Assembly (NCBI GenBank): GCA_964016885.1
Contig: CAXHJY010001242.1
Coordinates: 1-64,000, forward strand
Source: Eledone cirrhosa
Lineage: Eukaryota
DNA: 64,000 bases
Direction of reading: 5' to 3'
The position numbers were made by a program, and so were the translations under genes. Positions 1-62,897 of the stretch are shown here, piece by piece (position 1 is the first letter of the stretch; every line of letters begins with the position of its first letter). The notes under the pieces are model-generated. The model had not been told where the DNA came from. It did not search any database and was given only the letters and a program-made list of their open reading frames with translations.

Positions 1-201
1 TGGTTGTGGAACCAGCCAACCAACCAGAAATTTATAAGTTTGTAGATTTGTAAATTTATAAATTTATAAATATATAAAAAATTGAAGTGAAAGCAACTGG
101 TGCGTGTGTTTCTTATTGGCAACATGACCCTCCCAAAGTATAACAATATCGGTTTCAACACACGATTTCAGATAAAGAATCTTGCTAACCAAATTCAGAA
201 A

Positions 202-246
<45 letters not shown>

Positions 247-365
247 GAAGGCGTGTGGCGGAGTGGTTAGGGTATTGGATTCGCAATCGTAGGGTTGTGA
301 GTTCGATTCCTGGACCAGGCGATGCGTTATGTCCTTGAGCAAGACACTTTATTTCACGTTGCTCC
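247..365 (+). mobile_element. tRNA-derived SINE head with start of a CORE-like domain (truncated)
   Basis: A-box-like tggcggagtggtt, B-box gagttcgattcc, followed by tgtccttgagcaagacactt (CORE-SINE-like motif). Confidence 0.8.
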
Positions 366-462
366 TTCTACCTGGAGTTGCGACCGATAGATAGTATTAG
401 CAATTGGAAAGACCAACGGAAACATTGTTCCCTCGGTCCGATTTGACGAAAGTCGATCGAAA

Positions 463-499
<37 letters not shown>

Positions 500-680
500 T
501 ATTGAAGTTTGCTTGAAGCATTGTGGAAGTTTGCTTGAAGTCGTTTGGAAGTCTCGACAATGCAAATGGGTAAATCTCCTGGTAACAAGATCCGGTGGTG
601 TAGAGAGAGATGTAAGTGGCGTGTATAAGACGTGTAGAGGAATGAAGGAAAGAGTATATATAATATATATATATATAAGA

Positions 681-908
681 AAGTGGTATCAGGTGGCGGT
701 AGATAAGGCGCAGAGCAGCCAAAATCCGGTGGTGAACCAAAAAACCTTAAGAAATAATGCTCCTATAATGTTGAGCACTTCAAAATGTAATATTGTACAG
801 CGGCACTGTCTTCAGTGTACAGCTATTACCAGCATATGATTAACTGACCTACTTGCCATTCGGATTTTGGCTGCTCTGCGCCTTATCTATCGCCACCTGA
901 TACCACTT
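681..908. repeat. Short inverted repeat (~52-bp arms, ~123-bp spacer)
   Basis: aagtggtatcaggtggcggtagataaggcgcagagcagccaaaatccg (681-728) is the near-exact reverse complement of cggattttggctgctctgcgccttatctatcgccacctgataccactt (861-908). Confidence 0.85.
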
Positions 909-1104
909 CCTTGTGGGGATGATTCCGATTCCGACAAAACTCTACGTATTATACTAAAACTTGTATTGTATTGACTGTATTCTCTACTCTATACCTCAGG
1001 ACGTTTTGTGAATCGCACTGAATTCGGAACCCGAACTTTACACAGAAACAAAATGGCGTAGGATAGAAGAAAGGAAAGGCACAGTAACAAAGAAAGGAAT
1101 CCCC

Positions 1105-1149
1105 AGTCACTGAAGAGGTTACAGAGTGTGTGACGAAAGGACTATGACT
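1105..1149 (+). ncRNA. Minimal type I hammerhead ribozyme (family 1)
   Basis: Stem I agtca/tgact; CTGAAGA core; stem II gttaca/tgtgac with one extra G; GAAA-ggac-TA minimal stem III and cleavage site. Confidence 0.65.
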
Positions 1150-1367
1150 ATATATAAACAACTCTCTGGTTGTGGGACCAGCCAACCAACCAGAAATTTA
1201 TAAGTTTGTAGATTTGTAAATTTATAAATTTATAAATATATAATAAATTGAAGTGAAAGCAACTGGTGCGTGTGTTTCTTATTGGCAACATGACCCTCCC
1301 AAAGTATAACAATATCGGTTTCAACACACGATTTCAGATAAAGAATCTTGCTAACCAAATTCAGAAA

Positions 1368-1420
<53 letters not shown>

Positions 1421-1539
1421 GAAGGCGTGTGGCGGAGTGGTTAGGGTATTGGATTCGCAATCGTAGGGTTGTGAGTTCGATTCCTGGACCAGGCGATGCG
1501 TTATGTCCTTGAGCAAGACACTTTATTTCACGTTGCTCC
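1421..1539 (+). mobile_element. tRNA-derived SINE head (duplicate of 247-365)
   Basis: Same A/B boxes and CORE-like motif. Confidence 0.8.
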
Positions 1540-1640
1540 TTCTACCTGGAGTTGCGACCGATAGATAGTATTAGCAATTGGAAAGACCAACGGAAACATT
1601 GTTCCCTCGGTCCGATTTGACGAAAGTCGATCGAAAAGAG

Positions 1641-1671
<31 letters not shown>

Positions 1672-1995
1672 TATTGAAGTTTGCTTGAAGCATTGTGGAA
1701 GTTTGCTTGAAGTCGTTTGGAAGTCTCGACAATGCAAATGGGTAAATCTCCTGGTAACAAGATCCGGTGGTGTAGAGAGAGATGTAAGTGGCGTGTATAA
1801 GACGTGTAGAGGAATGAAGGAAAGAGTATAAAGGATAAAATAAAAATAACACGAAAGAGAGTTACCTTGGGAGAGATTTAATTGGCCCTCTATATTTCGG
1901 ATTCACATCCATCAACTGGTGGTTTTTCCGGGGTGGGGAAAGGTTGTCTGTCGGAAAGGTGCGAAACGTGTCCTCCGCTGTTTGTTATTTTGAAT

Positions 1996-2057
<62 letters not shown>

Positions 2058-2147
2058 ATATATTATATATATATTATATATATATATATTATATATATAT
2101 ATATATATTATACATATATATATATATATATTATATATATATATATT

Positions 2148-2216
<69 letters not shown>

Positions 2217-2228
2217 ATATTATACATA

Positions 2229-2617
2229 TATGATATTAAATAAATGGAAACTATATTAATAAAACCATATTTATTTCGTTATATATATTTCAGGGATATC
2301 ATATTAACAATATGTTATGCCATTTTCAGACAAAATACAATATAAACAGTCTTATAAATAAATAGATACGACATTGTCGTATCAATGTCGTATCTATTTA
2401 TTTATAAGACTGTTTATATTGTATTTTGTCTGAAGATGGCATAACATATTGTTAATATGATATCCCTGAAATATATATAACGAAATAAATATGGTTTTAT
2501 AAATATAGTTTCCATTTATTTAATATCATAAATATACTCCAAATACTTGTTGAGTGCTTTTATATCAGTTATAAATATTTACTCGTTGTTAACCCAACAA
2601 TTTAAATATAACTTTCC
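2229..2617 (+). mobile_element. Non-coding PLE-type pLTR with 5' foldback (148-bp arms, 6-nt spacer), hammerhead family 2
   Basis: 2229-2376 is the reverse complement of 2383-2530. Both flanks are (TA)n. Homologous to 26413-28243. Confidence 0.75.
2422..2487 (+). ncRNA. Type I hammerhead ribozyme (family 2); the minus-strand copy at 2272-2337 has a mutated core (CTGAAAA)
   Basis: Stem I tattttgt/acgaaata; CTGAAGA; stem II containing catatt-gtt-aatatg; GAAA-tatata-TA palindromic stem III. Confidence 0.75.
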
Positions 2618-2638
2618 ATATATTATACATATATATAT

Positions 2639-2672
<34 letters not shown>

Positions 2673-2709
2673 ATATTAAACATATATATATTATATATAT
2701 ATATATTAT

Positions 2710-2754
<45 letters not shown>

Positions 2755-2893
2755 ATATTATACATATATCTATTATATATATATTATATATATATATATT
2801 ATACATATATCTATTATATATAAATATATATATATTATATATATATATATATATATTATACATATATATATTATATATATATATATATATATT

Positions 2894-2943
<50 letters not shown>

Positions 2944-3015
2944 CATATATATATTATATATATATATATATATTATACATATATATATTATATATATATA
3001 TATATATTATACATA

Positions 3016-3113
<98 letters not shown>

Positions 3114-3199
3114 GTATATATATATAATATATATATATATATATTATATATATATATACATATATATATTATATATATATATATAGTATATATATAGAG

Positions 3200-3253
<54 letters not shown>

Positions 3254-3381
3254 TATATACATATTATATATTATATATCTAAATATATATATCTAAATAT
3301 ATATATTATATATATATATATATAATACATATATATATATATATTATACATATATATATATATGTAAATATATTATACATA

Positions 3382-3478
<97 letters not shown>

Positions 3479-3854
3479 CCAACATCAGTATTTAGCGATA
3501 ATCATCATCTGTGCCTGACGTATCTGTCAGGTTGCCAGTCCAGCAGTTCTAAAGAAATGCTTAAACTGAATCAAAAATGAGGAAGTAAATTCCCGCCAAA
3601 AAAACAATACCTGCGCATGGCAATGAACTCTAAAAGCAATTCAGCCCACGGGCTAAGAACTCAATTGAAAATTGAAAAAATATCTATGTGTGTACAACAT
3701 TTGATGACACTATATATATATATATATATTATATATATATATATATTATATATATATATATATTATATATATATATATATATTATATATATATATATTAT
3801 ATATATATATATATTATATATATATATATATTATATATATATCATATATATATA

Positions 3855-3892
<38 letters not shown>

Positions 3893-3902
3893 CATATATA
3901 TA

Positions 3903-3944
<42 letters not shown>

Positions 3945-3961
3945 CATATATATATATATAT

Positions 3962-4034
<73 letters not shown>

Positions 4035-4242
4035 CATATATATATATATATTATATATATTTATATATATTATACATATATATATATATATATTATATAT
4101 ATTTATATATTATGCATATATATATCTATTATATATATATATATATTATATATAAATATATATATATATTATACATATATATATTATATATATATGTATA
4201 TATATATTATACATATATATATATATATATATATTATATATG

Positions 4243-4286
<44 letters not shown>

Positions 4287-4439
4287 ATAAATGCTCTGAA
4301 ATAGCGATATATATGTGAATATAGACATAGAATATTCGAAAATATTCTGTATGTTTATAATAAACATTTTGAAGACCTAATCGCTATAGAATAGAATACG
4401 TCACGTATTACAATTAGATTCTCGATAAAAGCAAGGGAA

Positions 4440-4482
4440 GTAATCTACGCGTTTCATTCTCGTTAGAAATCATCAGGACCAC
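4440..4482 (-). ncRNA. Minimal type I hammerhead ribozyme (family 3)
   Basis: Reverse complement: gtggtc CTGATGA tttct-aacg-agaat GAAA cgcg TA gattac. Stem I is extended by the perfect 16-bp pair attctcgataaaagca/tgcttttatcgagaat. Confidence 0.85.
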
Positions 4483-4749
4483 ATATCCAGTGCTTTTATC
4501 GAGAATGACACAGCTAGAGACTTATAGAATACTTGGCTGTGTACAGGAACTGGTTTGAAAGAGCGGTTGCCGGTCCGGCAGAAATTAGAAATTGGAATAA
4601 ATGCTCTGAAATAGCGATATATATGTGAATATAGACATAGAATATTCGAAAATATTCTGTATGTTTATAATAAACATTTTGAAGACCTAATCGCTATAGA
4701 ATAGAATACGTCACGTATTACAATTAGATTCTCGATAAAAGCAAGGGAA

Positions 4750-4792
4750 GTAATCTACGCGTTTCATTCTCGTTAGAAATCATCAGGACCAC
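4750..4792 (-). ncRNA. Minimal type I hammerhead ribozyme (family 3, second tandem copy)
   Basis: Identical to 4440-4482, 310 nt away. Confidence 0.85.
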
Positions 4793-4902
4793 ATATCCAG
4801 TGCTTTTATCGAGAATGACACAGCTAGAGACTTATAGAATACTTGGCTGTGTACAGGAACTGGTTTGAAAGAGCGGTTGCCGGTCCGGCAGAATTAGAAA
4901 TT

Positions 4903-4945
4903 GTGGTCCTGATGATTTCTAACAAGAATGAAACGCGTAGATTAC
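4903..4945 (+). ncRNA. Minimal type I hammerhead ribozyme (family 3, inverted copy)
   Basis: gtggtc CTGATGA tttct-aaca-agaat GAAA cgcg TA gattac. Confidence 0.85.
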
Positions 4946-5067
4946 TTCCCTTGCTTTTATCGAGAATCTAATTGTAATACGTGACGTATTCTATTCTATA
5001 GCGATTAGGTCTTCAAAATGTTTATTATAAACATACAGAATATTTTCGAATATTCTATGTCTATATT

Positions 5068-5133
<66 letters not shown>

Positions 5134-5144
5134 ATATATATATT

Positions 5145-5219
<75 letters not shown>

Positions 5220-5295
5220 ATATTATATATATATATATATTATATATTATATATTTATATATATATATATGTATAATATATATATATTATATATA

Positions 5296-5331
<36 letters not shown>

Positions 5332-5334
5332 TCT

Positions 5335-5366
<32 letters not shown>

Positions 5367-5368
5367 AG

Positions 5369-5461
<93 letters not shown>

Positions 5462-5673
5462 TATATATATATATATATATAAATATATATATTATATATA
5501 TATATATATATAATACATATATATATATATATTATAGAATGTAATTCGGATATCATGAAAAGAGAAGATGCATTCAAAAACTACTTTCGGTGAAAAATAT
5601 ACGGAAAACAGAGTCAAGATAAATTAATTAAATAATGAATAAACAAAGAAACAGTTCCTTATATTAAAAAAAT

Positions 5674-5815
5674 TCATCATTTTACGATCGTTTCTAGGAT
5701 ATATCTGTGTTAGAGTTGGTATGCATATTCTATAGATCTATGTTCAATATTTATACAAACTATCAGAGGGAATATACATACCTACACATATATATGCTGT
5801 CTTCAGAAATGATGA
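5674..5815 (-). ncRNA. Type I hammerhead with ~105-nt stem II (family 4, Naiad A inverted arm)
   Basis: Reverse complement: tcatcattt CTGAAGA [105 nt] GAAA cgatcg TA aaatgatga; perfect 9-bp stem I. Confidence 0.8.
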
Positions 5816-6534
5816 TATTTGTTTACTGAAAAAAACAAAGATTCAATACAATAGGTCTGTTTGGGAACAGGTTTTGAATTGACCAATAGAGAGATAGTGA
5901 GGGTCAAGATGGTAATATTGTAGTAGAAGAACCTTAAATTATGGGTAGAGGAAGGTAGATATCAGTTTTGGATGGAAAAGAATATTATGAATGAAGGATT
6001 ATTTTAGAGAAGAAATAGGTCTTATGCTGACCTCAGAAATAATTTTATTTGTTCATTGAATAAAACCAACCAAGATCTAATATATTCTGTCTGTTTGGTA
6101 AGAGGTTTAGAATTAACCAATAGAAAGTTAATAATTGGCCAAATGGTAAAATAGTAGTAATTGAAGCTTATTTTAGGGATGAAAATAGGTCAGGTGGTCA
6201 GTAAAAGGTATACAAGCAGTTGCTGTTATAAAATAGTAATGCCAATACAAATATCTAAGGTGACTAAAGTTTTACGATAAGAATGTTAGTGAAAAATACA
6301 TCTATGAAAAGATTATAAATTAATTTAACTGATTGGTATATTTATATTGATAAAATTACACTAAATACATATAGATATGATAAATAAGAGTTACATGCAG
6401 TTGAAAAATGTTGTTAAAGATGACGGGAAATTAAATGAATATAAAAATAATATTATATATATATACTAATATATATATATACATATATATACACATACAA
6501 GCACACATATACACACACATATATATATATATAT

Positions 6535-6637
<103 letters not shown>

Positions 6638-7060
6638 CATATACATGCATATATACATACATACATATATATATATACACACACACACATACACACTTAC
6701 ATATACATATAATTATTGAGGGGGATTAAATTTATTAGTGAGAAATAATAAATATATATAGTTTTCAAGGAACATAGAGTCATAATCTGAAGTTAAAGCA
6801 TTATATATGTTTACTTAATGGTATCAGTTTTAGGAAATGATAGTTGTAAGAAGGAAAGCAAAATTATGTAGTTCATCAGTAGTAGAATATTAATTATAGG
6901 TTACCTAAATTAAAAATAGTTTATATATTAATTTCTAAAGTGTATATTAATTAGGTTTATAATATTTAAAGCAGAATTATGTAGTTCATCAGTAGTAGAA
7001 TATTAATTATAGGTTAACTAAATTAAAAATAGTTCATATATTAATTTCTAAAGTGTATAT

Positions 7061-8818
7061 TAATTAGGTTTATAATATTTAAAGGTTTTCTCAGTTTATG
7101 ATCACACGATATTATTAATTCCTGTCGCTTATTTAATAGGATATCCTTAGATTTCATTATTTCAAAAGGTTCTTGGGAACATAATCTACATTCATATCTA
7201 CTATGTTGATAAGGGCTGGCCCTTTTGAGCACACTCCAGGTCAGGTCATAATCTATATTCCTCTTTCTATAACTATTAATTATTTCAGCTAGAGATGTTT
7301 TAAAACTATGTTTGTGGGTATTAAATCTTACCTTAAATTTGTTAGAGGTAGCTCCTATATATGAATAAATTGAGTCCTTAGTGTTAACTTTACATTTATA
7401 TACTCTGTTATTAACAAGGCAATTTCCTTTTAATGCACAGTTTGACTTGTTTCTACAGTTACAATTTTTCGTGAATCCTGTATCTGAGGAGATATTATGG
7501 TTAGTTTGATGTACTGGTAGTATACTCATGCTTTTTTTACATTTATATGCATTATAGGCACTTATATTTTGTTTTATGTTTTTGGTTGTTGAGTAGGAGA
7601 ATTTAACCGTTGATCTATTACAAATTTGATGGTATTTGTGGTTTGGCGGGAAGTTTTTCTCTAGGATATTAAAGAATTTTTTAGGTATATTATCCTTAAT
7701 TTGTAAATTAAATGGAGCATTATACCAAGTAACTCGTCTATTACGGTTTCGATGTTGTTTATTGTTTTTATAGGGTGCATCCTGATGTTTCTTAAGAGAA
7801 TTATTGTTAATGACCTCACCACACACATTTCTAGTTAGATATATTGATTTAGGTGTTTTAGCTTGTTTATTAGGAGTTTTACTATTAACATTTATTAGAG
7901 TTGTAGGATGAGTAGTTTTTTGAGAGTTACTATACTGTATATTAGAATAGTTAGAGAAATTTGGTTTTATGTTGCTGTTTTGGAGTATAATGTGAGTGGC
8001 ATTTAGGTGTGTATGTTTCATTTGGTGTTTGTTGGTAATATTAGGTTGTATGTTTGTAGTGTTATTGGTAGAAGGTATATATACTAACCTATTGTTGTGA
8101 CCACTTCTATCTAGAGCTTCGTTATAAAAGGTGGCATTTTTATCAAATACATCTTGGTTAGACGAAAGGTTAGAAATTCTAAGTGATATATTATATGCAA
8201 GGTTTTTAAGGATAGATTTAGGGTGATTAGATTGTGAGTGTATGTAGTGTAAATTTTGGTTGGGTTTATGGTAAGGTTGGTAGATACCCGTAGATAAGTC
8301 TAATGTTATATCTAGGAAATTAACTACTTTACTTGTGTTTTCAAATGTAATATCTAGACTATAATAGTCTTTAAGGAAAGTTCTAATAGGCTTTTTATTT
8401 TTTCTGTCTCTGAGAGGCTAAGATTATTGGAAAGAAGAAGACAGTCGTCACGATATAAACCACCTTTAAGGTGGGGAAAGGAAGCATTTATGTTAAAAAG
8501 AAGAAAGAGGCCCACAAGATCAGTAATTTGGGCAGAATCGCTTGAGCCCATAGTAATATCGAATAGATTACTATATGTGTTTCTGGTCCAATATTCATTC
8601 GGAAATTCCTATAGTGTTAGTCTAGCATGTGTAATAATATTAATGTCATCCAAAGTTAAGTTAGATCTATTTTTAGCAAATATCAAGACTTTGTTCAGGA
8701 GTATAGGTGATATAGAAGAATAATAATTATCTATATCAAATTGTAGAAATGAAGCAGAGGATTTATTTCTAATATTAATAAAACAGTTAATTACCTGGGA
8801 TGTGTTTTCCCAGAGTGG
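7061..8818 (-). pseudogene. Inverted, 5'-truncated copy of PLE A ORF (RT C-terminal half + GIY-YIG)
   Basis: ORFs 8354-8551 (MGSSDSAQITDLVG...LYRDD) and 7041-8021 (CNCRNKSNCALKGNC, YIG, CRLC). Confidence 0.9.
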
Positions 8819-8934
8819 TTCTCCTACTACTATATTACTATCTTGACCCTCACCCTCTCTTTATTGGTTAATTCAAAACCTGTTCCCAAACAGACTTATT
8901 GTATTGAATCTTTGTTTTTTTCAATAAACAAATA

Positions 8935-9076
8935 TCATTATTTCTGAAGACAGCATATATATGTGTAGGTATGTATATTCCCTCTGATAGTTTGTATAAA
9001 TACTGTACATAGATCTATAGAATATGCATACCAACTCTATCACATATATATCCTAGAAACGATCGTAGAATGATGA
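8935..9076 (+). ncRNA. Type I hammerhead with 105-nt stem II (family 4, A 5' pLTR)
   Basis: tcattattt CTGAAGA ... atatatatgtg/cacatatatat and ggtatgtatattc/gaatatgcatacc helices ... GAAA cgatcg TA gaatgatga. Confidence 0.8.
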
Positions 9077-9414
9077 ATTTTTTTAATATAAGGAACTGTT
9101 TCTTTGTTTATTCATTATTTTATTAATTTATCTTGACTCTGTTTTCCGTTTATTTTTCATCGAAAGTAGTTTTTGAATATATCTTCACTTTTCATGATAT
9201 CCGGATTACAATGAGTTCTTCATACGGATTGGACACTGCCGTAAACTTTTGGTAGATTTATCTAAATACTTTGCTCCTATTTTCATGGGGATATTCTTAT
9301 TTTTATATTTTATGTGTATATATATTTATATATATATATACATATAAGTGTATAACCTTATAACTCCATATATAAATAATTGAGCTCTTTATCTTGTCCA
9401 TTATCCATATCACA

Positions 9415-11870
9415 ATGAAAAAACAATAATTGGGAACATCTTTAATGAATATACCATTACCTTCTAAGGATGATTTCTTACTTCTTATGATACAAAAAAA
9501 CAACCAATTTATCAGAAGAGTCAGATGGAGGGCCTACCACTTCGATAAAAAAACAAAATGTACTGATAGGAAATATTTGTATGATTTCACTACATATAAA
9601 AATCCACCACACAACTCCTTACTTGAAAACTTTGATAAAGACCTTTTTAATTTAATCAAACACCTCAAATTTAAGAGGTATAAATCTAATTTTCAAAAGG
9701 ACCTTGATTCTACTCTATTGGACCTAAAAAATCTAAAAATATCCATGTTCACTCGGACAAAACTGGAAATCTATATCACATGGATATTGAAAATTACAAT
9801 GAGTTCATATATAAAGAACTCAGGAAAAATTATAGAAAAACAAACAATGCGTCACTTACCAACATCAACAACAAAACACACAGCATAGTGAATAGACTTA
9901 ATATTGAAGATAGAACTGATGCTCTGGCATTGAAAAGACCACACTTCAACCTGAAAGATCATAAATCTAACTTTAACTATAATCCTTCTATAAGGCTTAT
10001 ATGCCCTTCCAAATCTGATATTGGAATAATTAGTAAAAACATTTTAGATAGAGTCATCCCACAACTAAGAAAACATGTTAATTTACCACTCTGGGAAAAC
10101 ACATCCCAGGTAATTAACTGGTTTAATAATATTAGAAATAAATCCTCTGCTTCATTTCTACAATTTGATATAGATAATTATTATTCTTCTATATCACCTA
10201 TTCTCCTGAACAAAGTCTTGATATTTGCTAAAAATAGATCTAACTTAACTTTGGATGACATTAATATTATTACACATGCTAGACTAACACTATTAGAATT
10301 TCAGAATGAATACTGGACCAGAAACAGATATAGTAATCTATTCGATATTACTATGGGCTCAAGCGATTCTGCCCAAATTACTGATCTTGTGGGCCTCTTT
10401 CTTCTTTTTAACATAAATGCTTCCTTTCCCCACCTTAAAGGTGGTTTATATCGTGACGTCTGTCTTCTTCTTTTCAATAACCTTAGCCTCTCAGAGATAG
10501 AAAAAATAAAAAGCTTATTAGAACTATCCCTAAAGACTATTATAGTCTAGATATTACATTTGAAAACACAAGTAAAGTAGTTAATTTCCTAGATATAACA
10601 TTAGACTTATCTACGTGTATCTACCAACCTTACCATAAACCCAACCAAAATTTACACTACATACACTCACAATCTAATCACCCTAAATCTATCCTTAAAA
10701 ACCTTGCATATAATATATCACTTAGAATTTCTAACCTTTCGTCTAACCAAGATGTATTTGATAAAAATGCGACCTTTTATAACGAAGCTCTAGCTAGAAG
10801 TGGCCACAAAAATAGATTAGTATATATACCTTCTACCAATAACACTACAAACATACAACCTAATATTAACAACAAACACCAAATGAAACATACACACCTA
10901 AATGCCACTCACACTATACTCCAAAACACCAACATAAAACCAAATTTCTCTAACTCTTCTAATATAGAGTATAGTAACTCTCAAAAAACTACTCATCCTA
11001 CAACTCTAATAAATGTTAATAGTAAAACTCCTAATAAACAATCTAAAACACCTAAATCAATATATCTAACTAAAAATGTGTGTGGTGAGGTCATTAACAA
11101 TAATTCTCTTAATAAACATCAGGATGCATCCTATAAAAACAATAAACAACATCGAAACCGTAATAGACGAGTTAGTTGGTATAATGCTCCATTTAATTTA
11201 CAAATTAAGGATAATATACCTAAAAAATTCTTTAATATCCTAGAGAAAAACTTCCCGCCAAACCACAAATACCATCAAATTTTTAATAGATCAACGGTTA
11301 AATTCTCCTACTCAACAACCAAAAACATAAAACAAAATATAAGTGCCTATAATGCATATAAATGATAAAAAAAAAACCATGAGTATACTACCAGTACATC
11401 AAACTAACCATAATATCTCCTCAGATACAGGATTCACGAAAAGTTGTAACTGTAGAAACAAGGCAAACTGTCCATTAAAAGGAAATTGCCTTGTTAATAA
11501 CATAGTATATAAATGTAAAGTTAACATTAAGGACTCAATTTATTCATATATAGGAGCTACCTCTAACATATTTAAGGTAAGATTTAATACCCACAAACAT
11601 AGTTTTTAAAATGCCGCACTAGCTAATACAACATCTCTAGCAGAAATAATTAATAGTTATAGAAAGAGGAATATAGATAATGACCTGACCTGGAGTGTGC
11701 TCAAAAGGGCCACCCCTTATCAAAATAGTAGATATGAATGTAGATTATGTTCCCAAGAACTTTTTGAAATAATGAAATCTAAGGATATCCTATTAAATAA
11801 GCGACAGGAATTAATAATATCGTGTAATCATAAACTGAGAAAAACCTTTAAATATTATAAACCTAATTAA
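9415..11870 (+). pseudogene. PLE A RT-GIY-YIG ORF disrupted by stops and frameshifts
   Basis: Fragments 9430-9888, 9780-10550, 10883-11365 and 11343-11609 are collinear with the intact ORF of B. The catalytic YRDD is mutated to YRDV. Confidence 0.92.
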
Positions 11871-12289
11871 TATAGACTTTAGAAATTAATATATAAACTA
11901 TTTTTAATTTAGTTAACCTATAATTAATATTCTACTACTGATGAACTATATAATTCTGCTTTAAATATTATAAACCTAATTAATATACACTTTAGAAATT
12001 AATATATAAACTATTTTTAATTTAGGTAACCTATAATTAATATTCTACTACTGATGAACTACATAATTTTGCTTTCTTTCTTACAACTATTTCCTAAAAC
12101 TGATACCATTAAGTAAACATATATAATGCTTTAACTTCAGGTTATGACTCTATGTTCCTTGAAAACTATATATATTTATTATTTCTCACTAATAAATTTA
12201 ATTCCCCCCCCCCAATAATTATATGTATATGTAGGTGTGTATGTGTGTGTATATATATATGTATGTATATATGCATGCATATGTATATA

Positions 12290-13219: not shown

Positions 13220-13308
13220 CATATATTATATATATATTATATATATATATATATATAAAATATTAAACAAATAATGAACAAACAATTCCTTATATTAAAC
13301 AAAAAAAG

Positions 13309-13463
13309 TTCACTATTTAACGATCGTTTCTAGGGTATATATGTGTTATAATTGGTATGCATATTTAACAGATCTATGTACAAAATTATACAAAATTATA
13401 CAAATTATCAAGATTAAATATACATACCTAACTCATATATACGCCGTCTTCAGAAATAATGAA
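13309..13463 (-). ncRNA. Type I hammerhead with 116-nt stem II (family 4, B inverted arm)
   Basis: Reverse complement of 22519-22673. Confidence 0.78.
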
Positions 13464-14215
13464 GTATATTTATTGATAATAACAACAATTCAAAATATCA
13501 GTTCAAAATTGACCAATGAAAACACAAAGGGTTAAAAAGCAGTTTGGTGTGTGTATATACATGTAAAACCCTACACACATTTTACAATAATGTGTGTATA
13601 ATTTGTATGTGCATACTAAAAAGATGGATGCAAATAAAAAATTTCAAGGTTAATATCTCTGTAAGCTTAATGCGCTGATAAGATACGCAATGATACTTAT
13701 GGAGTCAAGCATATAAATATATTTTTTTCATACTCACACATATCAGTATAATCACACATACATGTGCGTATATATATAAATATACACATAACCACGAACA
13801 CACAAAACACACACACTCCCCCACTCACATTTATATATGTGGATATAAAATCATAAGCAAATAGAAATTAAGTCACTCACATAAACACACTGGTACACAC
13901 ATTTCAAGATCAAGACACAGAAACCAGGTGGGAGGGGGGGGGAGGGGTCAGCACCAGACTGTCAGACCAGACAGCCCAACACAAATGTATCTATAAATTA
14001 TGAAAAACAAAAAATAAAAACAATAAAATATAATACATATAATATAATGTACACACGCATACAGATACACACACACACACACATGCACGCGCACACAGAG
14101 ACATCCACACACACACACACACACACATACCTACACCGTCATACACACACACACACTTACACGAACACACACATACACATACAAAAAGACATAAACACGG
14201 ACACACACACGCGCA

Positions 14216-14266
<51 letters not shown>

Positions 14267-14643
14267 CACATATACATACACATACACACACACATAGACT
14301 CATATATATATACTTACACATACATATACTTATACACAAACATACATATCCCACACCCACACCACCATAAAAACACATACAAACATCCAGATGTATATAT
14401 ATATATATATATACACATATATATATATCAACATACACACACGTACACATATATGTATATATACATACACATATACACACATACACATATATATATACAC
14501 ACACACATAAAATACAGACATGCACATATATATATATATATATATATTTCATTACTCTTATATATACACATAGTATATATACATACACAACCTCACTTAT
14601 ACACATATACACATAAGTTATATTACAATAATAATAAAGAACA

Positions 14644-14674
<31 letters not shown>

Positions 14675-14813
14675 TATACACACATATACACATATACATA
14701 CATACACATACATATACATACATACATACACATACATACATACACCTAAATATAAACATATATAAATACACACATACGAGTAAAGACATATATTCACACA
14801 TAGACACCTATAT

Positions 14814-14855
<42 letters not shown>

Positions 14856-15202
14856 ATATACACACACATACACATACATACACACACATATATACATACA
14901 CATATACACACACGCACACACATACAGACACACATACACACTCACATATATATATATATATATATATATGTGTATGTGAGTGTGCGCAAATACATATATA
15001 TATATACACACACACACACAAACACACACAAACACACACATATGCACACGTGCACACACACACACATATATCACACAGATACGAAGATAAACATACAAAC
15101 AGAGAGACACACAAATATATACAGAACCCACATACACATACATACAAACACGCACATACATACACATACATATATACACACATACATATTCCTATACACA
15201 AG

Positions 15203-15239
<37 letters not shown>

Positions 15240-16826
15240 ATATACATACCACACATTCACATACACGTACATATATAATACATATATATACACATATATA
15301 CATACATATGTATGTACAATCATATATACACACTCAATCTTACATTCATATTTACATGCTCATATATGTATTTTTATATTTAGAAATAAATACCAAAAAA
15401 ACTATATAGACACCCATCTACACATATATTCATACATATACACTTACAAAAACAGATGATAATAGTATGGGGGAAAGGGGGGGTTTGGAGAAGGGGATCA
15501 AAGTAAATATATGTTTCAAGAAACATATAATATTTTCCATATCTTAATTCAATGTATGTTCCTACATATTTTCCGTGCTAGGAAATACGAAATCTATGCA
15601 TCACAAAATAAAAAAGTATACCATTAATCATATGTCAACTAAACCAAAGATAGTCAACATATTGATTTCCAAGGTGTAAATTAGTTAGGTTTATAATATT
15701 TGAAGCAGAATTATGAAGTCAAACAGTAGTAGATTATTAATTACATTATAACTAAATTAAAGTTAATAACGTTATGGTATCAATATTAGGAGATGAATTT
15801 AGTAATAGGGAAAAGAAACCCAAATAAAAATAAAATAAAGTATTACATCGGTAGTAGCATATAAATTATATGTTAACTAAGTTAAAAATTATATATTTAT
15901 TTCAATAGTATATGTTAATTAGTATATGTTAATTAGGTATACAATACATAAAGCAGATATTGTATTTCATCAATAGCATAATATAATTATATGCAAATAA
16001 AAATCAAAATTAATACGCATACATATACATATACATACACATACACATACATATATATATACATACACATATATATATATATATATACATATATATACAC
16101 ATACATACATATATAATCACATAAATATACATACAGATACACATACAACACACACATATACATATACATATAGATATACATATCTTATTCAAAAAATTTG
16201 CACAGAATATATTAACTAGGTATATATCCAAAAACACCTCCCATTCTATGATTACATGACATTCTGTAATTCGTCTGTACAAGGATACTAATTTTAAGCA
16301 AATTAAAATTAAAATTAAAGTTTTAGGTTGATTAAAGCTAAAACCAAATAATAAATATATTTCCAAAATGTATATTAATTAGGTCAATAATACTAAAAAT
16401 TCTTTCTCCGTCATAGGATACATGATATTATGCATACCAATTATAACACATATATACCCTAGAAACGATCGTTAAATAGTGAACTTTTTTTGTTTAATAT
16501 AAGGAATTGTTTGTTCATTATTTGTTTAATATTTTATCTTGACTCTGTATACCGTTTATCTTTCACCGAAATTGGATTTTCATTACATCTCTTCTTTCCA
16601 TGATATCCGGAATACATTGAGTTCTTCATACGGATTGGACACTACCGTAAACTCTTGGTAGATTTATCTACATAATTTTGCTCCTATTTTCACGGAAATA
16701 TTCGTATTTTTGTACTGTATGTGTGTATTAATTTTATATTTATGTATAAACATATATATATGTATGATTTTGTAAACCCATATACATTTAGTTGAGCTCT
16801 TTCAATTGTCCATCATCCATATCACA

Positions 16827-19268
16827 ATGGAAAAACAATATTTAGGAACCTCCTTGAAAAACATACCAATACCTTCTAAGGACGACTTCTTACTCCTTAT
16901 GATTCAGAAAACTAATAATTTTATCAGAAGGGTTAGATGGAGAGCCTACCACTTTGATAGAAAATCTAAACAAGCAGATCGGAAATATATGTATGATTTC
17001 AACACTTACAAGAATCCACCACACAACTTTTTACTTGAAGACTTCGAGAAAGACCTTTTTAATTTAATTAAACACCTCAAATTTAAAAAGTATAAATCCG
17101 TCTTTCAAAAGGACCTTGATTCTACCCTATTGGACCTAAAAAAGTCTAAAAAAATCCATGTCCACTCGGACAAAACTGGTAACTTGTATCATATGGATAT
17201 TGAACATTATAATGAGTTCATATATAAAGAACTCAGAAAAAATTATAAAAAATCTAATAATGCGTCACTCACCAACATCAACAACAAAACACACAACATA
17301 GTAAAAAAACTAAATATTGAAGATAGAACTGAACCTTTGGCATTGAGAAGTCCACACTTCAACCTGAAAGATCACAAATCTAACTTTAACTCTAATCCTT
17401 CTATTAGACTTATATGTCCCTCCAAATCAGATATTGGAATAATTAGCAAAAAAATTTTAGATAGAGTCATCCCACAAATAAGAAAATACGTTATTTTACC
17501 ACTCTGGGAAAACACCTCCCAGGTAATTAATTGGTTTAAAAATATTAGGTGTAAATCTTCTGCTTCTTTCCTACAGTTTGATATAGATAATTATTATTCT
17601 TCTATATCACCCATACTCCTGAACAAAGCATTAATATTTGCTAAAAATAGATCTAATTTAACTTCGGATGACATTAACATTATTACACATGCTGGACAAA
17701 CACTTATTGAATTTCAGAATGAATACTGGACCAGAAACACTTATAGTAATCTTTTTGATATTACTATGGGTTCAAGCGATTCTGCCCAAATTACTGATCT
17801 TGTGGGCCTCTTTCTCCTTTTCAACATAAATGCCTCTTTTCCCCACCTCAAAGGTGGTTTATATCGTGATGACTGTCTTCTTCTTTCTAACAACCTTAGC
17901 CTTTCAGAAATCGAAAAAAACAAAAAGCATATTAGAACTTTCCTTAAAGACTATTATAATCTTAATATTACTTTTGAAAAAACAAGTAAAGTAGTAAATT
18001 TCCTAGATATAACTTTAGATTTAGCTACGGGTATATACCAACCTTACCATAAACCTAACCAAAACTTACATTATATACACTCACAATCTAATCACCCTAA
18101 ATCTATCCTTAAAAACCTTGCATATAATATATCACTTAGAATTTCTAACCTTTCTTCTAACCAAGATGTATTTGATAAAAATGCGACCTTTTATAATGAA
18201 GCTCTAGATAGAAGTGGCCACAAAAATAGATTAGAGTATATACCTTCTACTAAAAATACTGAAAGCATACAGCATAATATTACCAACAAACACCAAATGA
18301 AAAGTACACACCTAAATGCCACCCACAGTATACCCCAAAATACTAAATCTTCTAATATAAAGTATAGTAACCCTCAAAAAACTACTCATCATAAGACTAT
18401 AATAAATATTAATAATAAAACTCCTAATAAAAAAGATAAAACACCTAAATCTACAAATATAACTAAAAATAGTTGTGGTGAGATCATTAACATTATTCCT
18501 CCTAGTAAAAATCATGATACAACATATAAAAATAATAAAAATAATAAACAACATAGAAACCGTAATAGACGAGTTACTTGGTATAATGCTCCTTTTAATT
18601 TACAAGTTAAGGATAATATTGCTAAAAAATTTTTTTATATCCTTGAGAAAAACTTCCCGCCAAACCACAAATACCATCAAATCTTAAATAGGTCTACAGT
18701 TAAATTCTCATATTCTACAACAAATAACATAAAACAAAATATAAGTGCATATAATGCATATAAATGTAAGAAAACTATAAGTATACCACCAGTACATCAA
18801 ATTAACAATAATATCTCCTCAAATACAGAATTAACGAAAGGATGTAACTGTAGAAACAAAACAAACTGCCCATTAAAAGGGAATTGTCTTGTTAACAACA
18901 TAGTCTATAAATGTAATGTTAAAACTAAAGATTCTATTTGCTCATATATAGGAGCTACCTCTAACAATTTTAAGACAAGGTATAATACCCACAAACATAG
19001 CTTTAAAAATGCCGCACTGGCTAATACAACATCTCTAGCAGAAAAAATCAATAGTTATAAAAATAAAAATATAAAATATGATTTGACCTGGAGTGTGCTC
19101 AAAAGAGCCACCCCTTATCAAAATAATAGAAAGGAATGTAGATTATGTTCCCAAGAACTATTTGAAATAATGAAGTCTAGGGATATCTTATTAAATAAAA
19201 GACAGGAATTAATTATATCGTGTAATCATAAACTAAAAAAAACATTTAAATATTATAAACCTAATTAA
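16827..19268 (+). CDS. Naiad-type PLE polyprotein: reverse transcriptase + CxC zinc motif + GIY-YIG endonuclease (813 aa from first ATG)
   Basis: N-terminal SLKNIPIPS, DKT motif, RT motifs FDI..YYSSI, MGSSDSA, YRDD and FLDITL, TWYNAPF, CNCRNKTNCPLKGNC, NIVY...YIG, CRLC, LLNKRQEL..CNH. No internal stop. Confidence 0.93.
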   Translation: MEKQYLGTSLKNIPIPSKDDFLLLMIQKTNNFIRRVRWRAYHFDRKSKQADRKYMYDFNTYKNPPHNFLLEDFEKDLFNLIKHLKFKKYKSVFQKDLDSTLLDLKKSKKIHVHSDKTGNLYHMDIEHYNEFIYKELRKNYKKSNNASLTNINNKTHNIVKKLNIEDRTEPLALRSPHFNLKDHKSNFNSNPSIRLICPSKSDIGIISKKILDRVIPQIRKYVILPLWENTSQVINWFKNIRCKSSASFLQFDIDNYYSSISPILLNKALIFAKNRSNLTSDDINIITHAGQTLIEFQNEYWTRNTYSNLFDITMGSSDSAQITDLVGLFLLFNINASFPHLKGGLYRDDCLLLSNNLSLSEIEKNKKHIRTFLKDYYNLNITFEKTSKVVNFLDITLDLATGIYQPYHKPNQNLHYIHSQSNHPKSILKNLAYNISLRISNLSSNQDVFDKNATFYNEALDRSGHKNRLEYIPSTKNTESIQHNITNKHQMKSTHLNATHSIPQNTKSSNIKYSNPQKTTHHKTIININNKTPNKKDKTPKSTNITKNSCGEIINIIPPSKNHDTTYKNNKNNKQHRNRNRRVTWYNAPFNLQVKDNIAKKFFYILEKNFPPNHKYHQILNRSTVKFSYSTTNNIKQNISAYNAYKCKKTISIPPVHQINNNISSNTELTKGCNCRNKTNCPLKGNCLVNNIVYKCNVKTKDSICSYIGATSNNFKTRYNTHKHSFKNAALANTTSLAEKINSYKNKNIKYDLTWSVLKRATPYQNNRKECRLCSQELFEIMKSRDILLNKRQELIISCNHKLKKTFKYYKPN

Positions 19269-20743
19269 TAACATTATTCTAGAATTTAATTTAATTTAAA
19301 TGTTAGTTAACCTATAAATTTAATTTAATTAATATTTTATTACAGATGAGAAAATATTATGTAATCATTAATTTTGAAAAACCTTTAAATATTACTAATA
19401 TATATTCAGTAATTTAATTTATAGATTAATTTTAACTTATTTTAACCTTTTATTATAATTTTTTAATTTAGTTTAACCTTTTATTATAATTTTTTTTTTT
19501 TTTTTTTTTTTTTTTTATTATAATTCTTTTACAGATAAAATATAACAAAATAATATCATGTATCCTATGACGGAGAAAGAATTTTTAGTATTATTGACCT
19601 AATTAATATACATTTTGGAAATATATTTATTATTTGGTTTTAGCTTTAATCAACCTAAAACTTTAATTTTAATTTTAATTTGCTTAAAATTAGTATCCTT
19701 GTACAGACGAATTACAGAATGTCATGTAATCATAGAATGGGAGGTGTTTTTGGATATATACCTAGTTAATATATTCTGTGCAAATTTTTTGAATAAGATA
19801 TGTATATCTATATGTATATGTATATGTGTGTGTTGTATGTGTATCTGTATGTATATTTATGTGATTATATATGTATGTATGTGTATATATATGTATATAT
19901 ATATATATATATGTGTATGTATATGTATATGTATGTGTATGTGTATGTATATGTATATGTATGCGTATTAATTTTGATTTTTATTTGCATATAATTATAT
20001 TATGCTATTGATGAAATACAATATCTGCTTTATGTATTGTATACCTAATTAACATATACTAATTAACATATACTATTGAAATAAATATATAATTTTTAAC
20101 TTAGTTAACATATAATTTATATGCTACTACCGATGTAATACTTTATTTTATTTTTATTTGGGTTTCTTTTCCCTATTACTAAATTCATCTCCTAATATTG
20201 ATACCATAACGTTATTAACTTTAATTTAGTTATAATGTAATTAATAATCTACTACTGTTTGACTTCATAATTCTGCTTCAAATATTATAAACCTAACTAA
20301 TTTACACCTTGGAAATCAATATGTTGACTATCTTTGGTTTAGTTGACATATGATTAATGGTATACTTTTTTATTTTGTGATGCATAGATTTCGTATTTCC
20401 TAGCACGGAAAATATGTAGGAACATACATTGAATTAAGATATGGAAAATATTATATGTTTCTTGAAACATATATTTACTTTGATCCCCTTCTCCAAACCC
20501 CCCCTTTCCCCCATACTATTATCATCTGTTTTTGTAAGTGTATATGTATGAATATATGTGTAGATGGGTGTCTATATAGTTTTTTTTTGGTATTTATTTC
20601 TAAATATAAAAATACATATATGAGCATGTAAATATGAATGTAAGATTGAGTGTGTATATATGATTGTACATACATATGTATGTATATATGTGTATATATA
20701 TGTATTATATATGTACGTGTATGTGAATGTGTGGTATGTATAT

Positions 20744-20780
<37 letters not shown>

Positions 20781-21127
20781 CTTGTGTATAGGAATATGTA
20801 TGTGTGTATATATGTATGTGTATGTATGTGCGTGTTTGTATGTATGTGTATGTGGGTTCTGTATATATTTGTGTGTCTCTCTGTTTGTATGTTTATCTTC
20901 GTATCTGTGTGATATATGTGTGTGTGTGTGCACGTGTGCATATGTGTGTGTTTGTGTGTGTTTGTGTGTGTGTGTGTATATATATATATGTATTTGCGCA
21001 CACTCACATACACATATATATATATATATATATATATGTGAGTGTGTATGTGTGTCTGTATGTGTGTGCGTGTGTGTATATGTGTATGTATATATGTGTG
21101 TGTATGTATGTGTATGTGTGTGTATAT

Positions 21128-21165
<38 letters not shown>

Positions 21166-21304
21166 ATATAGGTGTCTATGTGTGAATATATGTCTTTACT
21201 CGTATGTGTGTATTTATATATGTTTATATTTAGGTGTATGTATGTATGTGTATGTATGTATGTATATGTATGTGTATGTATGTATATGTGTATATGTGTG
21301 TATA

Positions 21305-21335
<31 letters not shown>

Positions 21336-21712
21336 TGTTCTTTATTATTATTGTAATATAACTTATGTGTATATGTGTATAAGTGAGGTTGTGTATGTAT
21401 ATATACTATGTGTATATATAAGAGTAATGAAATATATATATATATATATATATGTGCATGTCTGTATTTTATGTGTGTGTGTATATATATATGTGTATGT
21501 GTGTATATGTGTATGTATATATACATATATGTGTACGTGTGTGTATGTTGATATATATATATGTGTATATATATATATATATATACATCTGGATGTTTGT
21601 ATGTGTTTTTATGGTGGTGTGGGTGTGGGATATGTATGTTTGTGTATAAGTATATGTATGTGTAAGTATATATATATGAGTCTATGTGTGTGTGTATGTG
21701 TATGTATATGTG

Positions 21713-21763
<51 letters not shown>

Positions 21764-22518
21764 TGCGCGTGTGTGTGTCCGTGTTTATGTCTTTTTGTAT
21801 GTGTATGTGTGTGTTCGTGTAAGTGTGTGTGTGTGTATGACGGTGTAGGTATGTGTGTGTGTGTGTGTGTGTGGATGTCTCTGTGTGCGCGTGCATGTGT
21901 GTGTGTGTGTGTGTATCTGTATGCGTGTGTACATTATATTATATGTATTATATTTTATTGTTTTTATTTTTTTGTTTTTCATAATTTATAGATACATTTG
22001 TGTTGGGCTGTCTGGTCTGACAGTCTGGTGCTGACCCCTCCCCCCCCCTCCCACCTGGTTTCTGTGTCTTGATCTTGAAATGTGTGTACCAGTGTGTTTA
22101 TGTGAGTGACTTAATTTCTATTTGCTTATGATTTTATATCCACATATATAAATGTGAGTGGGGGAGTGTGTGTGTTTTGTGTGTTCGTGGTTATGTGTAT
22201 ATTTATATATATACGCACATGTATGTGTGATTATACTGATATGTGTGAGTATGAAAAAAATATATTTATATGCTTGACTCCATAAGTATCATTGCGTATC
22301 TTATCAGCGCATTAAGCTTACAGAGATATTAACCTTGAAATTTTTTATTTGCATCCATCTTTTTAGTATGCACATACAAATTATACACACATTATTGTAA
22401 AATGTGTGTAGGGTTTTACATGTATATACACACACCAAACTGCTTTTTAACCCTTTGTGTTTTCATTGGTCAATTTTGAACTGATATTTTGAATTGTTGT
22501 TATTATCAATAAATATAC

Positions 22519-22673
22519 TTCATTATTTCTGAAGACGGCGTATATATGAGTTAGGTATGTATATTTAATCTTGATAATTTGTATAATTTTGTATAATTTT
22601 GTACATAGATCTGTTAAATATGCATACCAATTATAACACATATATACCCTAGAAACGATCGTTAAATAGTGAA
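22519..22673 (+). ncRNA. Type I hammerhead with 116-nt stem II (family 4, B 3' pLTR)
   Basis: ttcattattt CTGAAGA ... gtatatatg/catatatac, ggtatgtatattt/aaatatgcatacc ... GAAA cgatcg TT aaatagtgaa. Confidence 0.8.
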
Positions 22674-22864
22674 CTTTTTTTGTTTAATATAAGGAATTGT
22701 TTGTTCATTATTTGTTTAATATTTTATCTTGACTCTGTATACCGTTTATCTTTCACCGAAATTGGATTTTCATTACATCTCTTCTTTCCATGATATCCGG
22801 AATACATTGAGTTCTTCATACGGATTGGACACTACCGTAAACTCTTGGTAGATTTATCTACATA

Positions 22865-43100: not shown

Positions 43101-43778
43101 TGATGATAATGTTTTTGAGAATTATTTTAGTCTTGTGTATTATCTGTTTGTTCTGTTTGGAGTTCTGGATCTTAGGGAGGGTGTCTCGTTCCCCCATGTC
43201 AGATTCTTTCATCTTCATCCATTCGATCATAATCCTTCAAGTTGGCAAGTTCATTCTCATTCATTTCTTTATCATTTACGATCTCATTGTTTTCATTTTG
43301 AGTTTCATCTTGAGCATGCACTCCCTCCACTTTTTCGATCCTTTCTTTAATTTGTTTTGTTGTCATTGATTCCGCCCCCAACCCTGGGATTCGAAGTGTT
43401 ACTATTTACCTCGTTTTCACTGACACATGTTTCATTTTCCCTTCGCTGACTTTGTGCTAAGAGCTTGATCTGATCAATTTCTATAAAAGTTAGTATCTTT
43501 CTTTTAACAATTTTTCTTCGTATATTGGCTAGTTTGTTACTGTCAATATAGCCTCTATTTTCGGGATGATTCTTTTTCCAGTTGATATATGTCTGTTATG
43601 TATTCGATGTATTTGATGGGTAGTACATGGCAGTGTAGAAAGCCTCACGGACTTCTTTATTATCTTCCCTTGACTATTTTTGTCTCTTTTTCTTTGGATT
43701 TCTTGGTGGTGAGCATGGAGGGCCAACAGTAGTAGTATTCCCGTTATGGGAGGTCTCCAGCTCCAAAGTGATGGGAAG

Positions 43779-43781
<3 letters not shown>
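40111..43781 (-). mobile_element. R4/Dong-like non-LTR retrotransposon (RT + CCHC + restriction-like endonuclease), slightly 5'-truncated, degenerate
   Basis: FQGDSLSP, FYMDDLKL, CRVC...H..SMC, RHD, PDII...IDMSVP, K..KY motifs; (TAA)n on both sides. Confidence 0.9.
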
Positions 43782-43827
<46 letters not shown>

Positions 43828-43830
<3 letters not shown>

Positions 43831-44331
43831 GGTGGCAGTTGCGAAAGAGATTATATGGTGGACCAGGTTGAAAGGACTAAAGACAGACACTTTTCTCTTC
43901 GGCCAATCCCTCATCAACTTCTTCAAGTTTCACCTGGAATGGAGGGTGAGGGTGGAGAGAGAAGTGCTGCCCCCCAGTACATTTGCTAAAAGGTGGGTAA
44001 ATGTGGCGAGAATGGCTCGTGTGAATGGGCCTACTCTGACCATGCGCCTATAGGCTGGCTAACTTGAGGAGAGGGGTGCTCTCCTGGGTGCCCTAGAAGC
44101 GCAGGGTGGTTCAGGATTGGTGGGGTACCGGAATCACCCCAGGGTCGTCCACCCCATATCGGGGAATTTATTTTGTTATATTTATGCATAGTTTATTTTA
44201 TATTTTTATATTTTCATTGTTAAATTAGTCTTGCCATTGTGCACTTTTATTCGACCTTATTGTAAACCCCCACTGTCCCTGTCTTTGTATTGTCCCCTAC
44301 ATGTCGGCCCTTGTGGCTAATAAATGAAATC
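43828..44331 (+). mobile_element. 3' fragment of an L1/Tx1-like LINE
   Basis: C-terminal AKEIIWWTR...FAKRW pattern, 3' UTR with aataaa, then an (ATT)n tail. Confidence 0.55.
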
Positions 44332-44358
44332 ATTATTATTATTATTATTATTATTATT

Positions 44359-48202: not shown

Positions 48203-48269
48203 TTATTATTATTATTATTATTATTATTATTGTTACTATTATTATTACTTTTTTTTTTTTTATTCAAAA

Positions 48270-61832: not shown

Positions 61833-61887
61833 TCCCGGGTTCAATTGAGGGTAACCACAGTAAGTAAGGTATTCAATACATAGTAGA

Positions 61888-61926
<39 letters not shown>

Positions 61927-61929
<3 letters not shown>

Positions 61930-62832: not shown

Positions 62833-62835
<3 letters not shown>
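61927..62835. mobile_element. Mariner-derived foldback made of two inverted left ends
   Basis: TACGAGGG...CCCTCGTA termini in (TA)n. Both arms encode the mariner N-terminal HTH (CEVRA.IRFL...EIHRQL.EVYG...SGRP). No DD34D domain. Confidence 0.9.

Positions 62836-62897
<62 letters not shown>

Follow-up and report, generated by a model that had tools for sequence, protein, structure and literature searches.

The window analysed here, a 64-kb stretch of the Eledone cirrhosa genome, contains towards its left end a short two-armed element set in (TA)n, the flanking target sequence spanning 3712..4280 on the left and 5079..5536 on the right. Target-site duplication was looked at in the window and in the insertions sampled elsewhere, and (TA)n lies on both flanks. 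The repeat unit is numbered from 4593 along the minus strand, so that the predicted ribozyme cut follows position 148. The first arm (4281..4903, minus strand) consists of 2.0 tandem units (TRF period 310, 2.0 copies, 99%), and its tailed RNA-sense 3' end, at unit position 313, points outward at 4281 into (TA)n. A preliminary description had called this tandem exact; the period and the copy number stand, while the two 310-nt units are better termed near-exact, a 1-nt indel near 4891 being the sole difference between them. The second arm (4902..5078, plus strand) comprises 0.57 of a unit, that is positions 111-287, with 177 nt matching the unit at 99.4%, and its tail-less RNA-sense 3' end (278-287) also points outward into (TA)n. 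Because the ATATAT of the unit merges with the flank, the right end of the element is ambiguous and may be placed anywhere within 5069-5078. This inverted partial third copy had been noticed before and is real; what had been missed is its meaning, for the anatomy of the insertions described below suggests that it is not a mere partial copy, being instead the tail-less arm of one insertion of the type made by Penelope-like elements (PLEs).

The two arms meet at an inversion junction (4891..4905), where they overlap by 1-2 nt close to a 1-nt deletion. The first arm carries at its outer end a Penelope-type tail of 26-35 nt (4281..4315, minus strand) which is missing from the second arm. Within the tail lies a conserved hairpin motif, GCU-AU-N-UC-R-GAGC (4305-4293, minus strand), after which 12 nt remain before the end, and two further hairpins, one of 7 bp and one of 7-8 bp with a tetraloop, lie directly 5' of the tail-less end (4329..4367, minus strand); the GC content is 0.26 across 4001-5000, and the ORF scan of the window returned no ORF of 100 aa or more inside the element, in keeping with the unit having been described as non-coding. 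The arms of the window differ from each other at unit position 133 (4924), a common polymorphism and also a CpG site, and the difference may stem either from the use of two templates or from mutation after insertion.

Hammerhead motifs are found in both units of the first arm, at 4418..4506 (minus strand; core start 4476, predicted cut after GUA at 4446) and at 4728..4816 (minus strand; core start 4786, predicted cut after 4756), and once in the second arm, at 4903..4945 (plus strand; core start 4909, predicted cut after 4939). All three copies share the core CUGAUGA...GAAA CGCG UA, after which comes stem I's 3' strand. In the first arm, stem I has 6 bp and, beyond an internal loop, another 3 bp before the perfect 16-bp helix noted previously as its extension, which is located at 4506-4491/4433-4418 and at 4816-4801/4743-4728 and closes the folded hammerhead region; in the third copy the junction removed the 5' strand of this helix, leaving a stem I of 6 bp only. 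Stem III is reduced to one pair with a palindromic tetraloop and the base of stem II is a U-U. The epithet minimal, as used in the preliminary description, is therefore apt for stem III and not for the long stem I. Given such a stem III, catalysis would probably require two hammerheads paired through ACGCGU, a dimer helix computed at -9.5 kcal/mol; along the same line, amphibian retrozyme hammerheads of the one-pair stem III form are reported to cleave well as dimers only (PMC7229834).

The predicted minus-strand cuts, 4756|4755 and 4446|4445, enclose exactly one 310-nt monomer (4446..4755), the ends of which would be joined by the pairing of stem I and the 16-bp helix. Folded on its own, the monomer has a z-score of -3.0, its two ends are paired and none of 100 shuffles folds as well. 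As a circle, the antisense strand is more stable than the sense strand (-75.7 vs -63.6 kcal/mol), hence folding energy does not choose between strands. An Rfam search over 1-12000 returned no hammerhead at E<=1, and on a narrow stretch HH9 was matched below threshold (16 bits vs a gathering score of 52, E 0.55); the hammerhead call leans, therefore, on motif, fold and variant pattern. On the basis of the core, the stems and the GUA site, and with an Rfam score below threshold, each unit appears to carry one type I hammerhead.

The element belongs to a large family. In searches of the 3.0-Gb assembly, with reversed patterns as controls, the hammerhead core pattern gave 14,242 matches, at unit spacing and on many contigs (control 0). 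The exact end '...TTATTCCAAT' joined to TA gave 997 matches (control 0), a lower bound for the number of insertions. Unit length is 310-312 nt across the family, which is dispersed (345 matches among 40 scored candidates), and within arrays non-fixed variant cells amount to 0.057%. With thousands of near-identical units, the proposal that the family is recently active is supported. A short, low-GC, non-coding tandem unit without LTR, PBS or PPT, present as a dispersed multi-copy family, supports the view that the element is a recently active non-LTR retrozyme, i.e. of a known kind; with about 14,000 units, some 4.4 Mb in all, the family contributes measurably to satellite-like DNA. The head-to-tail joint of the unit was also found in contigs from 4/4 public runs, belonging to 4 studies; these contigs are of unrecorded kind, so that strand, ends and circles are not readable from them, and a closed 310-nt contig in the same data arises equally from tandem DNA.

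Across the genome, the window's layout turns out to be the rule. In 18/18 best-match insertions, the window included, the order is (TA)n, reversed array, junction, forward array and (TA)n, with RNA-sense 3' ends outward on both arms. A second sample was drawn from contig C1, using its first 42 listed tailed ends minus 2 that overlapped the earlier sample; 36 of these 40 insertions are two-armed with opposed arrays, and of the remaining four, two overran the fetched stretch at 24+ units, one ended in unread sequence and one is one-armed. Arrays thus reach 24+ units. The outer ends fall at two fixed sites of the unit, 26-40 nt apart: the tailed end, which was the selection criterion in the contig C1 sample, at unit positions 311-318, and the opposite end at 273-287, in 35/35 cases where it is visible (one was scored 266 by the script, owing to a fixed variant). 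At the arm junctions there are overlaps of 0-8 nt, or fills of up to 20 nt.

This anatomy is that of PLE insertions, which have an inverted 5'-truncated copy and a 30-40 bp tail at one end, with a bias of the Hydra and Naiad elements towards (TA)n (Craig et al. 2021, PMC8557442). Like the Hydra clade, the Eledone retrozyme shows an inverted 5'-truncated arm next to the tandem (18/18 and 36/40) and an AT-rich or (TA)n target, and the spacing of its ends accounts for a tail at a single end. The anole PLE enzyme, Poseidon_Ac, cuts and extends both strands in vitro and starts reverse transcription internally at two adjacent RNA sites, the gap between which forms the tail of 30-40 nt (Frangieh et al. 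2024, PMC11167929); two adjacent internal starts are likewise what the retrozyme ends indicate. Unlike PLEs, the retrozyme has no ORF and each of its arms is a multimer, with up to 24+ copies of the 310-nt unit. Of the 54 mapped two-armed insertions, not one contains an ORF in its arms or continues into one; in other words, insertion works like that of a PLE and the element is not an autonomous PLE. Very probably, then, the retrozyme is mobilised by PLE machinery.

Candidate enzymes are encoded in the same genome. An intact 830-aa ORF (16776-19268, plus strand) lies in the window, 12 kb from the retrozyme, and its translation contains RWR, SDKTGN, CNCRNKTNC, CRLC and CNH motifs. The Hydra clade is described as having a C-terminal GIY-YIG domain, an RWK-like motif, DKT, a CxCX5C linker, CxxC and CxH (PMC8557442), and from this comparison of motifs the ORF would be assigned to a Hydra-clade PLE; Pfam leaves Hydra-type ORFs unrecognised. 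Its C-terminal domain is 100% identical in 150/150 scored matches, many within full-length frames, and the element that carries it (13255-22864) has the same two-armed (TA)n layout. A second Hydra family, also active, encodes 821 aa, the RT part being 45% identical to that of the 830-aa family (L142:7172-9635, L219, L250-L269). It has a unit of ~3.9 kb with two fixed ends separated by ~87 nt; a bulged RCUC/GAGY hairpin lies 5-8 nt or less beyond each of them, and 19/20 stretches show one of the two ends in TA (11 and 8). Both active Hydra families insert two-armed in (TA)n, and the fixed ends were mapped for the 821-aa family. The exact partner is assigned to neither, since the unit shares nothing with the 830-aa and 821-aa families beyond TA-rich 10-19-mers and the end spacings of the Hydra families are longer (~60-140 nt vs 26-40 for the retrozyme). 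Between 5536 and 13190 the window contains a second, decayed Hydra-type insertion, ~86% identical to the 830-aa one, with diverging arms and 113-bp tandem repeats after each ORF end.

Genome patterns built on the shared 3' hairpins matched related non-coding families only, and searches for hammerheads with other stem II bases led to other repeat families and to no ORF matches. An old, decayed hammerhead family (L159-L204; 163 pattern matches) and a sister family (L113:7480-8001, L142:1935-2075) both retain the 3' module, namely two hairpins, GCUAU-N-UC-R-GAGC, 12 nt and the end. Over 7 sequences, which are related and from which the structure itself was drawn, 94.8% of the cells are paired and both partners have changed in 5 pairs (2/500 shuffles; 0-2 pairs in slid controls). 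The module is likely a recognition or start signal for the RT, a role which the covariation supports and does not prove. One and the same genome offers two active candidate enzymes and, next to the start sites, a short RNA module with covariation.

What the arms were copied from can be read from their variants. In 27/27 contig C1 insertions having both arms longer than one unit, and representing 15 haplotypes, the two arms are of the same haplotype (permutation mean 2.8, maximum 10 in 10,000). Among the 34 insertions in which both arms measure at least 100 nt, 7 have variants which are absent from the other sampled insertions (58 sampled, hence not necessarily unique in the genome) and which are fixed in every unit of both arms. 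A case in point is a 2-nt deletion in 22/22 units. Another concerns G62, mutated in 37 units genome-wide, of which 20 fill one insertion completely (G62A, 20/20 units) and the rest are scattered; adjacent G62A units occur nowhere else, and no source array is present in the assembly. Single-unit variants common to both arms were found in 2/22 insertions, the rough expectation being ~14/22 if both arms had copied an average-aged multimer from the same unit. The 70 complete arms (5/40 insertions excluded as incomplete or one-armed) have a mean length of 4.4 units, and a single exponential describes their lengths (KS p 0.51), with 59/70 above one unit and 11/70 below it; long arms are often free of internal variants, as in those of 13.2 and 11.0 units. 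Inner ends fall at the cleavage site in 3/75 cases (p 0.31), with no clustering. A linear cleaved monomer was rejected as template, for 59/70 arms exceed one unit and inner ends are unclustered at the cut. Taken together, haplotype match, array-fixed variants and arm lengths point to a one-unit bottleneck followed by long copying, of which a circle is the simplest source. Variants also recur 4-10 units apart within arrays, in blocks duplicated in older arrays, which show later local duplication; multimeric circles of 5-7 units were considered for these recurrences and later duplication was preferred, as the recurrences stop before the arm end.

The reading favoured here, with a confidence somewhat above even, is that each two-armed array is one insertion, made by a Penelope-like RT/GIY-YIG enzyme, probably of the Hydra clade, which copies a 310-nt RNA, probably a circle, starting from either side of a DNA break. 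Arrays would be transcribed on the hammerhead strand, the strand which the pair-preserving variants support; hammerhead pairs joined via the palindrome ACGCGU are predicted to cut after GUA and release 310-nt monomers; and, by analogy with other retrozymes, the monomer ends, held by stem I and the 16-bp helix, would be ligated into circles. The borrowed enzyme may then cut both (TA)n strands, where the ends are observed, with cDNA beginning internally, on each strand at one of the two fixed sites that lie 26-40 nt apart. Each RT would go round the circular RNA, yielding the observed arm lengths of 4.4 units on average, and the two cDNAs would join at variable points, with the overlaps of 0-8 nt or the short fills seen at the junctions, to produce the mirror arrangement. 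That the template was a monomeric circle copied with two primings is held at the same slightly favourable level. A fuller version has even chances: the arrays would record a telomerase-related Penelope enzyme dimer at a double-strand break, rolling round one ribozyme-made circle from two fixed starts, with the three-hairpin module as start signal. If this were true, a viroid-like circle would be written into animal chromosomes as mirror-image concatemers.

The same Penelope-type machinery and ends could also have copied a long uncleaved multimer derived from a homogeneous array, circles being a by-product, which is considered rather unlikely. In vitro, a PLE uses mainly unprocessed RNA, the RT preferring uncleaved molecules and the hammerhead being dispensable (PMC11167929), 8/9 frog retrozyme dimers were uncut (10.64898/2026.07.22.740005), and the Eledone hammerhead, with its one-pair stem III, belongs to a weak type. 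Matching arms are also expected from homogeneous sources; indeed, they are predicted equally by homogeneous multimers and by the fold-back route considered below. In L107 a single-unit variant is mirrored, being present in the outermost unit of both arms only, and three arms, in L040, L042 and L144, switch haplotype along their length. The difference at position 133 between the window's arms and the later local duplications also weigh against the circular reading favoured above. An uncleaved multimer, however, needs an extra process to fix new variants array-wide (the 7/34 insertions, and G62A with its missing source array), it would have left many more shared single-unit variants (2 vs about 14 expected), and the inner ends show no concentration at the cleavage site.

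Two primings of a circle, as preferred here, must also be compared with a single priming, after which the first cDNA would fold back and be copied as DNA to give the second arm, with a cut at the second fixed site. The identical arm haplotypes (27/27) are precisely what fold-back predicts, and the strands of the 16-bp inverted repeat hold an excess of inner ends (16/75 vs 7.7 expected, p 0.004, noticed post hoc); however, the longer arm may be either the tailed or the tail-less one, the two outer ends of L040 and of L042 carry different haplotypes, and in vitro cutting and extension by the anole enzyme take place on both strands (PMC11167929). Fold-back is for these reasons regarded as improbable, and it leaves the template question, circle or multimer, unchanged.

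Expansion after insertion is still harder to sustain. According to this scenario, short PLE-type insertions grew later by unequal crossover and were homogenised like minisatellites, in line with the local-amplification model proposed for vertebrate retrozymes (10.64898/2026.07.22.740005) and with the 4-10-unit block duplications of older arrays. Against it stand the single exponential of arm lengths, with just 11/70 under one unit, the long arms often lacking internal variants and the presence of the same rare variant on both inverted arms, so that it seems very doubtful. As for an assembly duplication, a DNA rolling-circle element or the terminal repeat (pLTR) of an ORF-bearing PLE, one retrozyme arm, in L155, does directly adjoin a decayed PLE RT fragment, but such origins are hardly credible in view of the 14,242 units on many contigs, the head-to-tail joint in 4/4 public runs, the lack of an ORF in the unit and of any ORF continuation (0/54 mapped two-armed insertions), and the conserved RNA-level pairing.

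That pairing is seen in the array-fixed changes, which within unit positions 112-154 affect 7 positions (N7, 10.1, loop II and stem I) and none of the 16 hammerhead core positions (p 0.028). The substitutions of stem I all retain pairing, and on the hammerhead strand only; those of the 16-bp helix are in 4/4 cases A to G opposite U, again with pairing kept on the hammerhead strand only, and for these four variants A-to-I editing cannot be told from selection for pairing. Mutants of G8 number 18 units genome-wide, no two of them adjacent, and those of the core position G12 number 25, with one block of 4 adjacent units (in L144). With one control site, the variant pattern is only suggestive of constraint on the ribozyme.

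Non-LTR retrozymes of coral, mussel and axolotl likewise consist of AT-rich, non-coding tandem units, of 150-450 nt, with one type I hammerhead per unit (Cervera and de la Pena 2020, PMC7229834); axolotl HHR_Amex1 has the same one-pair palindromic stem III and HHR_Amex2 the same U-U at the base of stem II. Circles of the metazoan elements were seen by northern blot, whereas those of the Eledone family are predicted. Circle-templated tandem cDNA synthesis by PLEs has already been proposed (PMC7229834; PMC7761336), but the text of the former, as far as consulted, does not report two-armed inverted insertions, a fixed end pair, a tail or (TA)n targeting. Vertebrate retrozymes are likewise considered PLE-dependent and range from dimers to many units (Li, Clavereau and Pollet 2026, 10.64898/2026.07.22.740005). 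That preprint argues from co-occurrence and pLTR homology and favours local tandem amplification, whereas the present argument proceeds from insertion anatomy, with no pLTR homology to the two families tested, and the Eledone arrays look born long. No description of two-armed tailed retrozyme insertions was found in the main texts of the open-access literature searched, and hammerheads go unmentioned in the available part of a recent octopus repeat annotation (PMC13282606).

In the literature examined, in so far as its text was accessible, the mobilisation of retrozymes by PLEs via circular RNA is proposed without demonstration. The Eledone genome provides at least 997 very young insertions in which start sites, arm lengths and haplotypes can be read, so that rolling-circle target-primed reverse transcription, and with it the way in which the inversion and tail of PLEs arise, can be tested directly with a 310-nt RNA.

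Several other observations concern the same sequences. A different two-armed array (L083:1400-5030) is built of ~490-nt units and bears a related hammerhead, identical in loop II and with ACUAGU as its palindrome, as well as an ATGCAAAT octamer. The arm at L155 (8297-8850) is joined without TA to the PLE RT fragment, reflecting either a mixed insertion or a later deletion, and in L148-L149 a small two-armed insertion is repeated four times inside a larger repeat of 4-7.5 kb. Within the window, another hammerhead-like core (CUGAAGA ... GAAA) is present at 1110-1150 (plus strand), between the duplicated blocks 1-658 and 1167-1830, and a near-perfect, MITE-like hairpin of 138 nt lies in an AT run at 2310-2447, with sub-threshold miRNA matches. 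Finally, the stretches 40256-50924 and 61868-62871 hold opposed LINE fragments with APE and RT matches and a 2-kb internal duplication, and a mariner-type HTH fragment in an inverted repeat.
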